12,140 nucleotides of DNA, taken from positions 1 through 12,140 of the forward strand of contig JAYGCN010000270.1 in assembly GCA_046583315.1 (NCBI GenBank). The letters are read 5' to 3'. The stretch's first letter is position 1. Every line of letters begins with the position of its first letter. Position numbers and translations under genes: made by a program. The notes beneath the pieces were generated by a model. That model ran no database searches. It was not told the origin of the DNA and saw nothing but the letters and a program-made list of their open reading frames with translations. The stretch comes from Candidatus Hydrogenedentota bacterium (GTDB lineage: Bacteria > Hydrogenedentota > Hydrogenedentia > Hydrogenedentales > GCA-2746185). Below are positions 1,238 through 12,015 of the stretch, piece by piece.

Positions 1238-5912
<4,675 letters not shown>

Positions 5913-5913
<1 letters not shown>

Positions 5914-7346
5914 TATTCCACCGCCTCCGTTACATCCTCAGCTGAAAAATCATCCAAATGACTACCCAGTAATCGCTCCAAATCAACAACACCAAGCTGA
6001 TACTCGGCCATTGCCTCCATGTGCTGGTTGCGCACAATAAACAATGTTCGTTGGGCATCCAGCACGCTCAGATAGGGAAACTTCCCCAACTCGAATCCAG
6101 TCTTGGTCGCTTCATAAGCCTTGAACGCAATGGGCACGACATCAGTTTCGAGTGTACGCACTTCGGACAAAATACCATTCATTTTTTCATGCTGGCTGGT
6201 TACGCGTCCCAACAGATTCGCTTGTTTCGCTCGTCGACGGTACGAGGCCTCACTCACGCGGTGCTCCGCTTCACGAACGCTTCCTTGATTCCGGTTAAAG
6301 ATTTGCAGGGGAATCGAAAAACCCAGTACAAACGAATTCTCCCGATTGTCCTCAAAACTGGATCGATCACGACCGGAAAGTATCCCGTTTCCATCAAACG
6401 ATGTCGACGATGAATCCGCTAAGCCCGTGCTTCGCCATCCCGCGCTCACCGTCACGTCCGGCTTGCCAAGCGCTCGTTCCAGATGAACCGCCTCCTCACG
6501 GCGTATGACCTCCGCACTCCATCGCGCCAGCTCAGGAGTCTCGAGCAGGGATTTTTCCAGACTGGAGCGATCCGGCAAAGAAACCACTTTCGAGAGATCG
6601 CCTATTGCACGTCCGGCATCAGTCGACGCGCCTCCCCATTGCGCCGCCAACGTCGCACGCGCCGCATTCAGTTCGCGCTCAGCCTTTGCCAACGAAATGC
6701 GTGCCTGCGCAAGAAGAATGTCAGCACGATTTCCTTCCAACGGACTTATCTTTCCGCTATCGATACGCTCATGCACAGTTTTGCTCGCAGCACCCGCCAT
6801 CTCAATGAGCTCTTGCTGCAAAGCCATTCGTTCCTGCCCGGCCAAGACCTCGATGAATGCGTGGCGCGTATCCGCAATGATGTCCGCGCGTGCAATCTCA
6901 TAGTCCCAAAGCGCGACCCGCGTAGCCTGATTCGCGAGTGCTATCCGCTTTGAACGTTTTTGACCCAACTCGAAACGCTGTGATACGGACACGGTAATTT
7001 CCGAACCATCAAAACCGTCATTATCAACGCCGCTGACCGATCGGCCAGTGACCAATCCCCCGCCATCGGTGGTCACCGTATCCGAATCCGGACCGTCAGA
7101 AAATCTGAGCTCCTCCATTTCGAATGAAAGCTCGGGATTGGGGCGCAGTCCGGCCTGAAGCACCGCAGCTTCCGAAGCATTGACGGACGCACGCAAGGCG
7201 ATCAATGCTGGATGCTGCCGCAAGGCACGTTCAACGGCTTCACGTTCAGAAATCGAGCTTTGCGCTACGGATACCTGCGAAAAAATAAGACAAAATGCGA
7301 ACACCCTTATCGATAGACACAAATTCCTTGACATAAAAATACACAC
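5913..7346 (-). CDS. czcC: TolC-family outer membrane efflux protein (CzcC-like)
   Basis: 477 aa. Signal peptide (..VSVA|Q), QAGLRPNPEL, SQRFELGQKRSKR, SIPLQIFNRNQG and GFELGKFPYLSVLDAQRTL. GTG start 8 nt after AAGGAG (7360-7355). First gene of a CBA arrangement. Confidence 0.9.
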
Positions 7347-7347
7347 G

Positions 7348-7426
7348 TTGAATTCTCCTTTTGATGAAGGAACAAGAGGAGAATCAAGTTCTCCTCTCCA
7401 CAGACAAACAAGCGCTGCGGAAAGGA
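7348..7426 (-). promoter_or_regulatory. Putative translational attenuator (four alternative pairing segments) controlling the czcC ribosome-binding site
   Basis: On the mRNA, seg1 UCCUUUCCGCAG (7426-7415) pairs with seg2 CUGUGGAGAGGA (7403-7392) over 12 bp with 2 G-U. AGAGGAGAA (7397-7389) pairs perfectly with UUCUCCUCU (7383-7375). UUGAUUCUCCUCUUG (7387-7373) pairs with CAAAAGGAGAAUUCAA (7363-7348), which contains the SD. Confidence 0.7.
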
Positions 7427-7879
7427 TTAACGTTGAAGCAGAACGCTCCGGAGAGATACGAGGCTATACGAGAGAGACTTGCGTGAATCGGAATTCGGGA
7501 GCCGATGGAGCCTAAAAGAGACGTTCAATTCAGTGAGCAGTGAACCAATGGACGGGAGCAACAAATCATCATGTACCGCATGGCGCGTAGAAACCGCACT
7601 AAATTCCTCATGTTCTGCCAAAGGAATATCGCTGCAGTCCCCACAATGGTCACCTCCGGCGTTATTGAAGCGTGCACTTTCATAGCGGAATTCGCCAGCA
7701 CGATGTTTCGCCTCTGAAGCAATCACGGACGAGCAATCGCCATCACTGGCCGCCTCAACCTCCGAATGCCCATCCGCGCCAATACACAAGACAAGACTGC
7801 TGGCATGAGGGGCGTGCAAAATACCCAGGAAAACCGTGACGATGCACAGGCTCGACGTAAATTTCGTTTTCAGCCACAT
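7427..7879 (-). CDS. Hypothetical exported Cys/His-motif protein upstream of czcC (CzcI-like position; candidate metal-sensing leader ORF), about 150 aa
   Basis: From ATG 7879: basic then hydrophobic N-terminus (MWLKTKFTSSLCIVTVFLGILHAPHASS), LCIGADGHSEVE, DGDC, HCGDCSDIPL, and C-terminal SLRSVLLQR. The ORF-track start (TTG 7915) coincides with the predicted -35 box and is probably not used. Confidence 0.7.
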   Translation of the reverse strand: MWLKTKFTSSLCIVTVFLGILHAPHASSLVLCIGADGHSEVEAASDGDCSSVIASEAKHRAGEFRYESARFNNAGGDHCGDCSDIPLAEHEEFSAVSTRHAVHDDLLLPSIGSLLTELNVSFRLHRLPNSDSRKSLSYSLVSLRSVLLQR

Positions 7880-7886
7880 ACTCACT

Positions 7887-7921
7887 ACTGTAAACCTTAT
7901 CCAAATCAAGATCAAAAAAAA
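7887..7921 (-). promoter_or_regulatory. Candidate sigma70 promoter for the leader ORF-czcCBA transcript, predicting a leaderless mRNA
   Basis: Minus strand T-tract running into TTGATC (7915-7910), exactly 17 nt, TACAGT (7892-7887), then 7 nt to ATG 7879. No good SD precedes that ATG. Confidence 0.55.
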
Positions 7922-8122
7922 TGCACGATGTCTAAGGCAATGAAACCCATGACAGACACCACAGGTTCCATATAAATCGTCAGAATCGGCTCGTGGCGTG
8001 CCTCAACACCACCACGAATCGGTTGGATGGACGATACGAACCCAATTCATCCCATGACGGTATCGTGACAGAATGAGTGTCCCGCAATCCCAATGCGCTG
8101 CGCGTCACCGACCGAAATATGA

Positions 8123-8620
8123 TTACTCGAGCAGCTGCGTTTCGGTATTCTCGTGGTGCGGCTGCAAGGACTGATGCATCTCCAGGGTTCGCACGACGGC
8201 GTTCCAGCGGAAATACGCTTCGTCATTCCCCTTCGGACGCCCCTTGGCAGCCTTGTCAAAGAATTCCAGTGCTTCCTGGAACCAATCGTACGCGACATGC
8301 GCCGAACTCATGGTATCCATCTTGAAGTGTGCGCGCGCTCGTCGCTCACACAGCAGACCGGAGTAATAGTTGCGATCATACCCGCTCTTCAATTCATCCA
8401 CCAGAAGTTGCGCCTCTTCAAAGGCATGCATCCGCTCAGGCAACTGATCGGAAAGCGAGAGGATTAACATGATCTGAGCGTCGTGGTTTTCGGAATCCAC
8501 CGCGAGGATATCCAAACACAAACTTTCGGCTTCGTTGGGCTCGTTGAGTAATCGATACCTCTCGGCCATCGCCAATGCTCGCGGAACCGAAGCCTTCGAG
8601 ATTTTCTTAAGCTGTTTCAT
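8123..8620 (-). CDS. Hypothetical all-helical (TPR-like) protein, fourth gene of the sdh operon
   Basis: 165 aa. ATG with AAGGAG (8633-8628) directly after the sdhB stop. TPR-like helix pairs (AERYRLLNEPNEAESLCLDILAVDSENHDAQIML; AYDWFQEALEFFDKAAKGRPKGNDEAYFRWN). No signal peptide or TM segment is apparent. Confidence 0.8.
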   Translation of the reverse strand: MKQLKKISKASVPRALAMAERYRLLNEPNEAESLCLDILAVDSENHDAQIMLILSLSDQLPERMHAFEEAQLLVDELKSGYDRNYYSGLLCERRARAHFKMDTMSSAHVAYDWFQEALEFFDKAAKGRPKGNDEAYFRWNAVVRTLEMHQSLQPHHENTETQLLE

Positions 8621-9377: not shown

Positions 9378-11200
9378 GCGTTCTCCTCGATAATGCTGGT
9401 TTGTTCGCTCGTGAGTGTCTTTATCGGTACTTGTCGAATAACCATGCTGCCATCTGACTGTTTATTGATGATGATATTGACCTTGGCAAATTCATCGCTT
9501 TTGTCGGGATAATCGTCCCGAAAATGCGCACCGCGACTTTCCTTGCGCTCGATACCCGCCCGTGTTGCCGCCTCAGCCACCGTGAGAAGATTCTGGAGAT
9601 CCAAAGCCGTGTGCCATCCGGGATTGTACTGGCGATTTCCGCACGCCGCAACGGTCTTAACGCGTTCATTCAGCTGCCCTATTTTGTCGAGCGCTTCCTT
9701 CATGTCATCCTCAACGCGGACAATCCCGACTTGTTCCTGCATGAAGTCCTGCAATTCGTACTGTATCTGGTAGGGGTTTTGCGCGTCACCCGATGTTTCT
9801 TCAAAACGCTCCAAAGGCGCCAAGGCTTGCTGCGTGAGATCGTTGATGACATCGTCGCTCGTCGTGGAATGGTCATATTCCTTGGCGTGAAGCGCAGCGT
9901 TTTCGCCGGCCCTGTTTCCAAATACGAGAAGATCGGACAAGGAGTTACCGCCCAATCGATTGGCTCCGTGCAGACCGGCCGCACATTCGCCCGCTGCATA
10001 AAGTCCCTGGACCGTCGACATTTGCGTATCCGCATCAACATGAATCCCGCCCATCGCATAGTGCGTCGTGGGGCCTACTTCCATCGCCTCTTTGGTGATG
10101 TCGATTCCGGCGAGTTCCTTGAATTGGTGGTACATGCTGGGCAGTTTTTTCTTGATATGCTCTTCGGCTTTCGGAAGATGTTCCTTAATCCACGAGATAT
10201 CCAGAAAGACGCCTCCATGCGGACTGCCTTTCCCCTCTTTAATCTGTTTTACGATACAACGGGCGACGTGGTCCCTCGTCAACAGTTCAGGCGGACGACG
10301 CGCATCCCGATCCCCTTGCGTGTAGCGCCACCCTTCGTCTTCGTTGTCAGCGGTCGAACTCACGTATAAGTCCGGAATGTCATCGAACATGAAACGGCGG
10401 CCTTCGCTGTTGGTCAAAACGCCGCCTTCACCGCGAACGCCTTCGGTCACGAGAATGCCGCGTACACTAGGCGGCCACACCATGCCGGTCGGATGAAACT
10501 GAATGAATTCCATGTCTATCAGTTCGGCACCGGCATCGTAGGCGAGCGTATGCCCGTCTCCGGTATATTCCCAACTATTGCTGGTTACTTTGTAGGCACG
10601 TCCGAATCCACCGGTAGCCATAATCACGGCCTTGGCTTTGAACAGGCGGAATCGGCCTTTCTCCCGCTCATAAGCGAAAACACCCGTAACCCGGTCCCCG
10701 TCCTTCAGCAGGCGGTACACGGTAAATTCCATGTGGAATTCGATTCCCTGATGAATTCCGTGATCCTGTAGCGTGCGAATCATTTCCAGGCCCGTGCGAT
10801 CACCGACATGCGCAAGTCGCGGGTATTTGTGACCACCGAAATTGCGCTGAAGAATCTTCCCTTCCTTTGTGCGATCAAATAAGGCACCCCACGCTTCCAG
10901 CTCGCGAACTCGATCCGGCGCTTCACGAGCATGTAACTCGGCCATCCGCGAATTATTCAGATATTGACCGCCGCGCATCGTATCGGCGAAGTGGACCTTC
11001 CAGCTGTCGCGTTCGTCGACGTTGGCCATGGCAGCAGCGACACCGCCTTCTGCCATTACGGTATGCGCCTTGCCCAAAAGCGACTTGCAAATCACGCCAA
11101 CTTTTACACCGGAGGCCGATGCCCTGATCGCCGCACTTAATCCTGCGCCGCCGGCACCGATTACCAATACGTCATATTCGAAAGTTTCAATGTCCGCCAC
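9374..11200 (-). CDS. sdhA: Succinate dehydrogenase/fumarate reductase flavoprotein subunit (Rv0248c/Sdh1-like), about 608 aa
   Basis: GAGGAG FAD-binding motif, KAHTVMAEGG (covalent-FAD His), QFHPT, TEGVRGEGG, RDHVAR, HYAMGGI, HGANRLGGNSL and RKESRGAHFRDDYP. Start revised to GTG 11200, which overlaps the upstream TAG (TAGTG), with GGAGA 8 nt upstream. Confidence 0.95.
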   Translation of the reverse strand: MADIETFEYDVLVIGAGGAGLSAAIRASASGVKVGVICKSLLGKAHTVMAEGGVAAAMANVDERDSWKVHFADTMRGGQYLNNSRMAELHAREAPDRVRELEAWGALFDRTKEGKILQRNFGGHKYPRLAHVGDRTGLEMIRTLQDHGIHQGIEFHMEFTVYRLLKDGDRVTGVFAYEREKGRFRLFKAKAVIMATGGFGRAYKVTSNSWEYTGDGHTLAYDAGAELIDMEFIQFHPTGMVWPPSVRGILVTEGVRGEGGVLTNSEGRRFMFDDIPDLYVSSTADNEDEGWRYTQGDRDARRPPELLTRDHVARCIVKQIKEGKGSPHGGVFLDISWIKEHLPKAEEHIKKKLPSMYHQFKELAGIDITKEAMEVGPTTHYAMGGIHVDADTQMSTVQGLYAAGECAAGLHGANRLGGNSLSDLLVFGNRAGENAALHAKEYDHSTTSDDVINDLTQQALAPLERFEETSGDAQNPYQIQYELQDFMQEQVGIVRVEDDMKEALDKIGQLNERVKTVAACGNRQYNPGWHTALDLQNLLTVAEAATRAGIERKESRGAHFRDDYPDKSDEFAKVNIIINKQSDGSMVIRQVPIKTLTSEQTSIIEENA

Positions 11201-12015
11201 TAAAAAAATCTCCAATCTGTCCATATACCCATCGCGCACATTCGAATGTATACATCGGTGAACCCGACCCAGACCAGGCTCACCCATGCCCAATTCATAT
11301 GCCGCTTATTCAAGGAGCTCACACAGTCGTAACACGCTTTCGACACCTTTGCTTTCTCAAAACAATTCAATCGTCCGCCGAAAAGATGACGGCTGCAATG
11401 ACAGCCAAAGGTGTATCCGCCCAGGAAAATGGCGTTCAACAAGAGAACAATGGAGCCCACGCCGATGCCGAACTTGTTGCTGCCATCATCGGAAGTGAAC
11501 CAGAATGCCCGGAGCGCATCGTAAGTCAAAACAAAAACGAAAAGACAGGCGACGTAAAAAAAGAAACGATGCGCATTGTGCAAGATAAGGGGCAGCCGAT
11601 TCTCTCCCCAATAAGACTTGCGCGGTTCGCCGACGGCACACGCAACCGGGTCTGCCCAGAATGCTTTATAGTAAGCACCACGATAATAGTAGCAAGTGAC
11701 ACGCATGCCTGCGGGCCCCGCGAGAATCAGAATCGCCGGTGAAAAGGGAAGAAAACTTGGCCACCAACCGGGCTGGAGTGCTGCAAAAATGCGTGGTTCA
11801 TGGGCTTGCCCGTACAGGAGCGGTGAGTACATCGGGGAAAGATAGTGGGCACCACCTTCATGAAAAAAATAATTCACGCCTTGCATACCCGCCCAAGTCG
11901 CATAGATGACGAAACTCGACAGGATTGTGAACACGGTTAACGGCTGGAGCCACCACCGATCCGTTCGTGAGGTTTCACCAAATCGTCTCGGCTTAATCGC
12001 GTTCGTTTCTGACAC
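11200..12015 (-). CDS. Succinate dehydrogenase membrane anchor of the mycobacterial Sdh1 (Rv0249c-like, type F) family
   Basis: 271 aa with several TM helices. RTDRWW, YLSPMYSP, RVTCYYYRGAYYKAFWADPVACAVGEP, GENRLPLILHNAHRFFFY, GCHCSRHLFGG and LNKRHMNWAWVSL match the Rv0249c family as I recall it. GTG start with AAGGAG (12029-12024). Directly upstream of sdhA. Confidence 0.85.
   Translation of the reverse strand: MSETNAIKPRRFGETSRTDRWWLQPLTVFTILSSFVIYATWAGMQGVNYFFHEGGAHYLSPMYSPLLYGQAHEPRIFAALQPGWWPSFLPFSPAILILAGPAGMRVTCYYYRGAYYKAFWADPVACAVGEPRKSYWGENRLPLILHNAHRFFFYVACLFVFVLTYDALRAFWFTSDDGSNKFGIGVGSIVLLLNAIFLGGYTFGCHCSRHLFGGRLNCFEKAKVSKACYDCVSSLNKRHMNWAWVSLVWVGFTDVYIRMCAMGIWTDWRFF

Follow-up and report, generated by a model that had tools for sequence, protein, structure and literature searches.

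A family of leader ORFs ahead of czcC genes and a predicted ribosome-responsive RNA switch in a Hydrogenedentota bacterium

The stretch of DNA analysed here (the window: 12,140 nucleotides of contig JAYGCN010000270.1, assembly GCA_046583315.1, from Candidatus Hydrogenedentota bacterium) carries on its minus strand a set of heavy-metal efflux genes in the order leader ORF, czcC, czcB and CusA/CzcA-family RND gene. The czcC-like outer membrane efflux protein (5913..7346) matches PF02321 with an E-value of 1.9e-47, the czcB-like periplasmic adaptor (4411..5913) matches PF16576 and scores above the cut-off of TIGR01730 and below that of TIGR00999, and the RND transporter (1238..4390) reaches 1555 bits with TIGR00914 against a cut-off of 701. 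The name of this pump family covers several metals. The leader ORF, a member of an unnamed family (7427..7885), encodes 150 aa from ATG 7879 or 152 aa from GTG 7885 according to the ORF list and the sequence, and an SD-like TAAGGT (7899-7894) lies ahead of the GTG. Its stop codon TAA (7429-7427) is separated from the czcC start codon GTG (7346) by a spacer of 80 nt (7426-7347), as had been described from the sequence before. No sigma-70 promoter pattern was seen in 7250-8200, no intrinsic-terminator pattern was present in the spacer, and Rfam covariance models gave no match at E up to 1 in 7200-8200. Intrinsic attenuation was considered and rejected, as the single terminator-like pattern in 7250-8200 lies inside the leader ORF and is at chance level. 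Elsewhere on the same strand, a 271-aa membrane-like protein (11200-12015), which has no Pfam or NCBIfam match, lies ahead of succinate dehydrogenase/fumarate reductase A- and B-like genes, and a TPR-like protein of 165 aa (8123-8620) comes after them.

The leader protein starts with a signal-peptide-like N-terminus (7796..7879), in which basic residues are followed by a hydrophobic helix (predicted helix 3-21). As a sequence pattern, a hydrophobic 11-mer precedes the first motif in 80 of 86 family members, with a preceding K or R in 84. This first motif, VLCxGxDGHxxxE (7754..7792), is predicted to form a beta-hairpin with strands at residues 28-33 and 39-45; C32 is invariant in alignment A5, and G37, H38 and E42 are invariant in alignment A2. 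A second motif, HCxxCxD (7628..7648), is a candidate metal or disulfide sensor located 68 residues from the C-terminus. In the family alignment C82 is invariant and D84 nearly so, and the CxxCxD form occurs in 80 of 147 members. The distance from CxD to the end of the protein is 64-72 aa in 115 of 128 members. Its standard deviation is 2.9, that of the distance from the first Cys motif to the second is 6.9 (n=92), and identity is 0.08 in the linker and 0.43 in the tail.

The C-terminal LRSVLLQR-TAA (7427..7453) is a candidate arrest tail, for which the family consensus is LR[TS]x[VI]L[LR]I-stop. Across 147 loci, R is found at -7 in 93, T or S at -6 in 113, V or I at -4 in 123, L at -3 in 134, L or R at -2 in 129, and I at -1 in 93, and conservation extends to -8. 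The protein ends in I, L, V, F or M at 116 loci and in N, C, R or another non-hydrophobic residue at 31, the window locus included; the window tail departs from the consensus at its last two residues (QR-TAA instead of I-TGA), an ending partly common to its closest relative, L101 (QR-TGA). The conservation of the tail is not a selection artefact, because a profile without the last 50 residues still finds it: among 39 new members recovered in this way, L is at -3 in 38, R at -7 in 33, and I or V at -1 in 30. The tail codons vary synonymously, and the constraint therefore acts on the protein. RAPP is absent from the window leader and has one loose match in the 147 members, of which 19 have PP within the last 15 residues and 128 do not.

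A single-sequence homolog search with the window leader returned only the protein itself, and the family was reached through czcC neighbours, followed by profile searches. Similar ORFs were found upstream of czcC relatives, which came from 41 genomes. The first profile matched in 61 of 135 genomes of the phylum, one member of which is Candidatus Hydrogenedentota, and a wider profile was run on genomes sampled around three further records, with matches in 10 of 101 for a Methylomonas record, 9 of 151 for a Desulfuromonadales record and 25 of 151 for a Pirellulales record. Once near-duplicates, one split copy and ORFs with open ends had been removed, 147 non-redundant loci from the sampled genomes were kept. 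The leader ORFs thus form a family that is present in several phyla and lies nearly always ahead of czcC; in 70 of the 80 loci recovered via the leader itself, a czcC-like gene is found within 1.3 kb. That the upstream ORF belongs to a conserved family was not part of the original prediction and is the principal result of the analysis. Neither the window leader nor any member of the 17- and 36-row alignments has a match in Pfam or NCBIfam. The window leader has no PDB sequence match and no fold match, and its predicted model is of low confidence (pLDDT 63). A literature search that did not include the motif among its terms found no title or abstract on the leader family. The family and its candidate arrest tail appear to be undescribed. 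The list of CutF-like proteins in PMC9973294 could hold some of its members.

Several loci vary in their arrangement. Extra genes, either a 266-aa ORF or ORFs of 67-97 aa, lie between leader and czcC in L005, L073 and L099, and in L006, L013, L055, L056, L058 and L061; in L083 a czcB-like adaptor comes directly after the leader; and in L063 two family leaders stand back to back on opposite strands. A stop and a frame change interrupt the leader in L086 (266-792) and L246, and these copies were left out of the counts. The family is also found on three Methylomonas plasmids; both of the two that were examined are typed as mobilizable and carry the leader before TolC-adaptor-CusA/CzcA genes (L268, L269).

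The spacer of the window contains four segments, whose positions are those given in the original prediction. Segment 1 (7415..7426) is pyrimidine-rich, begins with the first base after the stop codon and has segment 2 as its partner. Segment 2 (7389..7403) is an SD-like decoy, of which 7403-7392 take part in helix 1:2 and 7398-7389 in helix 2:3. Segment 3 (7373..7387), an anti-SD, is predicted to pair with segment 4 in the OFF state and with segment 2 in the ON state, and segment 4 (7348..7363) includes the SD AAGGAG (7360-7355), 8 nt ahead of the GTG. The loop of helix 3:4 holds a second, weak anti-SD (7367..7372), absent from the original prediction, which is the partner of the SD in the predicted ON structures.

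The minimum free energy (MFE) fold of 7330-7450 consists of helices 1:2 and 3:4, the OFF state proposed earlier, at -41.5 kcal/mol (z -4.79), and none of 200 shuffles was as stable. In the unmasked ensemble both helices have a probability of 0.97. Helix 1:2 has the 12 bp with two G-U pairs attributed to it, and the model adds 2 bp inside its loop; helix 3:4 is present with 12-13 bp and not 14. Helix 2:3, in which 7398-7389 pair with 7383-7374, has the perfect 9 bp and the 5-nt loop ascribed to it, plus one outer G-U. With a stop codon in the A site, a ribosome shields about 9-12 nt on the downstream side. When 9 or 12 nt after the leader stop were masked, the probability of helix 2:3 became 0.99 or 0.94, respectively, that of helix 3:4 fell to 0.01-0.06, and the cost of opening the SD dropped from 7.1 to 3.1 kcal/mol. 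This flip to helix 2:3 persists at 15, 25 and 37 °C. Holding 7426-7412 single-stranded had a similar outcome, as the probability of helix 2:3 went from 0.00 to 0.94 and the SD cost from 8.6 to 3.9 kcal/mol, with probabilities of 0.64 and 0.86 when two longer contexts were folded. Folding with masked nucleotides thus supports the proposed coupling to a ribosome at the upstream stop. Forcing segment 2 to remain unpaired left the SD locked at a cost of 10.1 kcal/mol even with segment 1 masked, which supports the relay logic of the original prediction, with segment 2 as the relay.

In contrast to the expectation that the SD would go from paired to free, its mean unpaired probability is 0.10-0.17 in the OFF and ON states alike. 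In the ON state, 7372-7367 form a weak hairpin with AAGGAG (probability about 0.45), and because of this pairing the SD is loosened and not freed. The ON cost of about 3 kcal/mol is within the range of ordinary genes of the window's genome (median 3.98). Among control gene pairs, 150 of 250 sampled from the 548 pairs of genome G000, 51 of 150 open as easily as the ON state and 20 of 150 are as closed as the OFF state. In a further control, the 64 nt preceding segment 4 were shuffled 400 times; a drop in SD cost as large as the real one was found in 9 shuffles and a stability as high in none, while in 55 the SD was hidden no less than in the real OFF state. Sequence context also has an effect, since the probability of helix 2:3 is 0.64-0.89 in longer contexts, and in the longest one, with 13-22 nt masked, the MFE structure returns to helix 3:4, although the ensemble SD cost is still near 3.8. 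Within these folding models, the OFF state is predicted to consist of helices 1:2 and 3:4, and masking of segment 1 to bring about helix 2:3 and make the opening of the SD about 4 kcal/mol easier.

Similar properties were looked for behind the stop codons of the family; the masking test covered 98 loci in which czcC is the next gene and has an in-frame start bearing an SD, the starts being anchored on czcC. Pyrimidines make up 81% of the first 10 nt after the stop, compared with 51% in controls (62 loci), and C accounts for 46% and G for 13% of these positions (n=98), a C-over-G skew that fades by nt 21-30. Complementarity to the SD region is strongest at the first post-stop base (-11.3 versus about -8), a peak that 250 controls do not have. 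Masking 12 nt makes the SD cheaper to open by 1.5 kcal/mol or more in 42 of 98 loci versus 10 of 150 control pairs, and by 3 kcal/mol or more in 29 of 98 versus 5 of 150; in the other 56 family loci the gain is below 1.5 kcal/mol. The control pairs come from one genome, whose GC content is lower than that of most members (family median 0.635), and the shuffle and swap controls therefore weigh more. With its own first 20 nt a locus scores 2.72 on average, with shuffled ones 0.85 and with swapped ones 0.91 (n=53), and its own segment is in the top tenth of swaps for 19 of 53 loci; for all 98 loci the values are 1.98 (own) and 0.51 (shuffled). Loci beyond L100 show a weak effect (20 of 58 responsive; mean 1.25 versus 0.39 shuffled, p 0.024), and with automatic instead of czcC-anchored starts, at least one of which (L134) was misplaced, this second set has a mean of 0.94 (p 0.047, n=34). 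Because kin loci are not independent, these p-values overstate the significance.

Direct pairing of the post-stop segment with the SD is predicted for 38 of the 42 responsive loci, and only four were called as relays. Most responsive loci would thus have the commonest form, a simpler two-segment switch with an anti-SD right behind the stop codon, and the four-segment arrangement of the window, although real, is a local elaboration of this family-wide switch. RNAalifold did not find the stop:SD helix in 18 Methylococcales-type spacers; when named by hand, the helix was 85% paired in them with no double changes, and pair counts revealed no covariation in Methylococcales-type spacers.

The four-segment form is present in three loci, namely the window, L002 and L101; the automatic rule also gave a relay for L208, which looks different, and made L301 a candidate. 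Both L002 and L101 flip to helix 2:3 under the same masking test, but in L101 the SD cost only falls from 5.4 to about 4.2, a gain of about 1.2 kcal/mol at 12 nt. Loop-anchored alignment by hand showed that L002 keeps all nine pairs of helix 2:3 with five double changes and one single change, and L101 eight of nine with four double and two single changes. The conservation of pairings that the original prediction called for is seen for helix 2:3 in these two relatives. The loop-proximal pairs of helix 2:3, which lie outside helix 1:2, differ in concert between the window and L101, although GGAGAAU is unchanged in segment 4; this argues that helix 2:3 is selected in its own right, albeit in a small sample of three related sequences. 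Together with L004, which is of the direct type, the three relay loci form one CzcC clade (support 97, quick tree), and as kin they are not independent.

The leader family, its tail, the fixed length of the linker, the place before czcC and the complementarities in the spacers are all present in the sequences, and from them we derive the following model, to which we give somewhat more than even credence. The spacer would act as a translational switch that hides the czcC SD until a ribosome is at the leader stop codon, and the leader would be an exported sensor, with metal prolonging an arrest at its tail. According to this model, the leader would be exported co-translationally via Sec, and the tail would arrest the ribosome when the stop codon is in the A site or close to it. 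The exit tunnel plus the translocon are spanned by roughly 68 residues, and for this reason the 68-residue linker may serve as a ruler, such that the Cys/His module is already outside the membrane when the tail is still in the ribosome. Metal bound to this module would prolong the arrest, so that a stall turns the pump on, as for CutF. The stalled ribosome would cover segment 1, helix 2:3 would replace helix 3:4, and initiation at czcC would go up. Extended to the whole family, the proposal of exported metal sensors in multiple phyla, with stop-codon arrest by a proline-free tail, a 68-residue ruler through which periplasmic metal is read across the membrane, and unmasking of the SD either directly or by a relay to switch on CzcCBA-type pumps, is more tentative, and we hold it at slightly less than an even chance; such a system would be a second, independently evolved solution to sensing of the CutF/CruR type.

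Plain translational coupling, in which any terminating ribosome briefly opens segment 1 and the leader is a secreted metal-binding protein whose tail is a protease/PDZ-type degradation tag, would explain all of the RNA results as well as arrest does. A hydrophobic-X-hydrophobic end is the pattern of PDZ ligands, and the frequent hydrophobic last residue (116 of 147) and L at -3 (134 of 147) resemble it. However, a degradation tag needs no fixed distance from a Cys motif, yet the linker is conserved in length despite its low identity; moreover, the 31 non-hydrophobic endings, including that of the window, do not conform to the pattern, and conservation reaches -8, with R at -7. We regard this explanation as unlikely. 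The tail could also be an arrest peptide that senses secretion force or periplasmic disulfide status instead of metal occupancy. The two invariant residues are cysteines, the CxxC form is found in just the 80 of 147 members mentioned above, pulling force is described as releasing SecM-type and CliM-type peptides, and the CutF model invokes disulfides. Nevertheless, the next gene is a heavy-metal pump channel, and not sec or dsb, in the 70 of 80 leader-first loci, and conserved His, Asp and Glu residues accompany the cysteines, which makes sensing of force or redox status quite improbable.

Control at the level of transcription would assign a different role to the C-rich stretch behind the stop, as a Rho loading site hidden by the stalled ribosome (cf. 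tnaC and CruR), with the SD pairing being secondary. Its base composition fits this idea, and precedents are available in the tna rut site, which adjoins the stop codon (PMC10941005), and in CruR, which acts through Rho (PMC9426467). However, the C-over-G skew fades by nt 21-30, the segment is paired in the model and fits its own SD region better than those of other members (the 19 of 53 in the top tenth), and the spacer has no intrinsic-terminator pattern, so that we consider Rho control very improbable. Finally, the helices could simply result from the presence of two SD-like and two anti-SD-like tracts and have no part in switching, given that a duplicated anti-SD/SD hairpin of any kind yields the 2:3 complementarity and that the 55 of 400 shuffles mentioned above hide the SD as strongly as the OFF state. 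Against it are the co-changes of loop-proximal 2:3 pairs between the window and L101 with a constant segment 4, and the family-wide position and swap tests, which favour switching; we give this explanation hardly any weight. Our preferred reading is that of a probably metal-responsive arrest at the leader stop that would loosen the czcC SD.

Switches with such a logic are known, and the new part appears to be the leader family with its candidate arrest tail. The known metal-sensing leaders use proline motifs, and the survey of CutF-like proteins was filtered for PP (PMC9973294); most of the leader family (the 128 of 147 members without PP) would thus have been missed by it. If the tail does arrest the ribosome, it would be a new arrest motif and would represent translational control of heavy-metal RND pumps in several phyla. 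The arrest idea is testable, since the plasmid of a cultured strain, Methylomonas sp. DH-1, carries a member, AYM39_RS24170 (annotated as hypothetical), 90 nt ahead of a TolC-family gene.

The mutually exclusive helices had been likened to ermC-type attenuation. The ermC helices are numbered 1:2 and 3:4 versus 2:3, and the window spacer has the same exclusive pairings. ErmCL stalls at codon 9 with a macrolide bound in the tunnel, and is a short leader before a resistance methylase, whereas the leader described here has 150 aa and is probably exported, its own stop codon is the predicted trigger site, and the next gene encodes an outer membrane efflux protein. The ribosome stalled on ErmCL rearranges the leader RNA and exposes the ermC SD (PMC5499644). 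That part of the comparison stands, but CutF and CruR are closer precedents.

CutF of Rhodobacter capsulatus (DUF2946) has an export signal and a Cys motif, and its ribosome unfolds a stem-loop that hides an SD (10.1101/2025.02.05.636593, PMC9973294). The leader family shares with it the small size, the Cys motif and, in folding predictions, an SD-masking structure within reach of the leader end, and its hydrophobic N-terminus is a candidate export signal. In contrast to CutF, it has no C-terminal proline motif, its conserved residues adjoin the stop codon, and the clade of the window uses a four-segment relay. PF11162 (DUF2946) matches none of the 17 and none of the 36 aligned members, nor does it have a match in G000 or in five genomes carrying the leader family, and in the ESM Atlas a cluster with 23% DUF2946 came up as a neighbour below the top. 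The survey, which required PP, describes CutF-like genes as often being ahead of CusC/CzcC/SilC outer membrane genes (PMC9973294). The original prediction knew of no such mechanism for a CzcCBA pump, but CutF-like leaders before CzcC/CusC had been published there as a bioinformatic class. A leader of that kind can occupy the same slot: in L003, whose genome is from the same family, a czcC homolog with 44% identity lies behind a Cys/His-rich ORF (about 1100-1452) that is not a family leader and ends in a PP motif 45 nt before the czcC start. A Cys-rich, PP-ending ORF is also upstream in 6 of 69 czcC loci without the leader family (L167, L185, L205, L228, L247 and L248), and one leader-family locus has such an ORF as well. 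CzcI of Cupriavidus metallidurans, a suggested metal-sensing regulator without a C-terminal proline motif, was placed in the CutF-like cluster (PMC9973294), and as a small gene ahead of czcCBA it resembles the leader by description only.

In CruR (Bp2923) of Bordetella pertussis, which heads metal-homeostasis operons, the distance between a CXXC and the C-terminal arrest motif is conserved (PMC9426467); this is comparable to the Cys motif at a fixed distance from the tail in the leader family. CruR, however, uses RAPP, a spacing of 45 residues and Rho termination, with copper turning the operon off (PMC9426467), whereas the leader family has no RAPP and a spacing of about 68 residues, and is predicted to act by SD occlusion and to turn the pump on. 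Arrest with a stop codon in the A site has precedents in TnaC, PepNL, CliM and the NSP/NAP/DGMK-stop peptides, and in the case of CliM a stem-loop masks the SD (PMC11890864, PMC13183943, PMC12992588, PMC10987492, 10.64898/2026.10.26.761930). The leader family resembles these peptides in its conservation at the amino-acid level directly before the stop, but its motif is different from those of the TnaC/PepNL/CliM type and the arrest is deduced from sequence; the cited passages on these peptides mention neither metals nor RND pumps. Taken together, the leader family likely works in the manner of CutF and CruR without belonging to DUF2946, as a stop-codon arrest leader.
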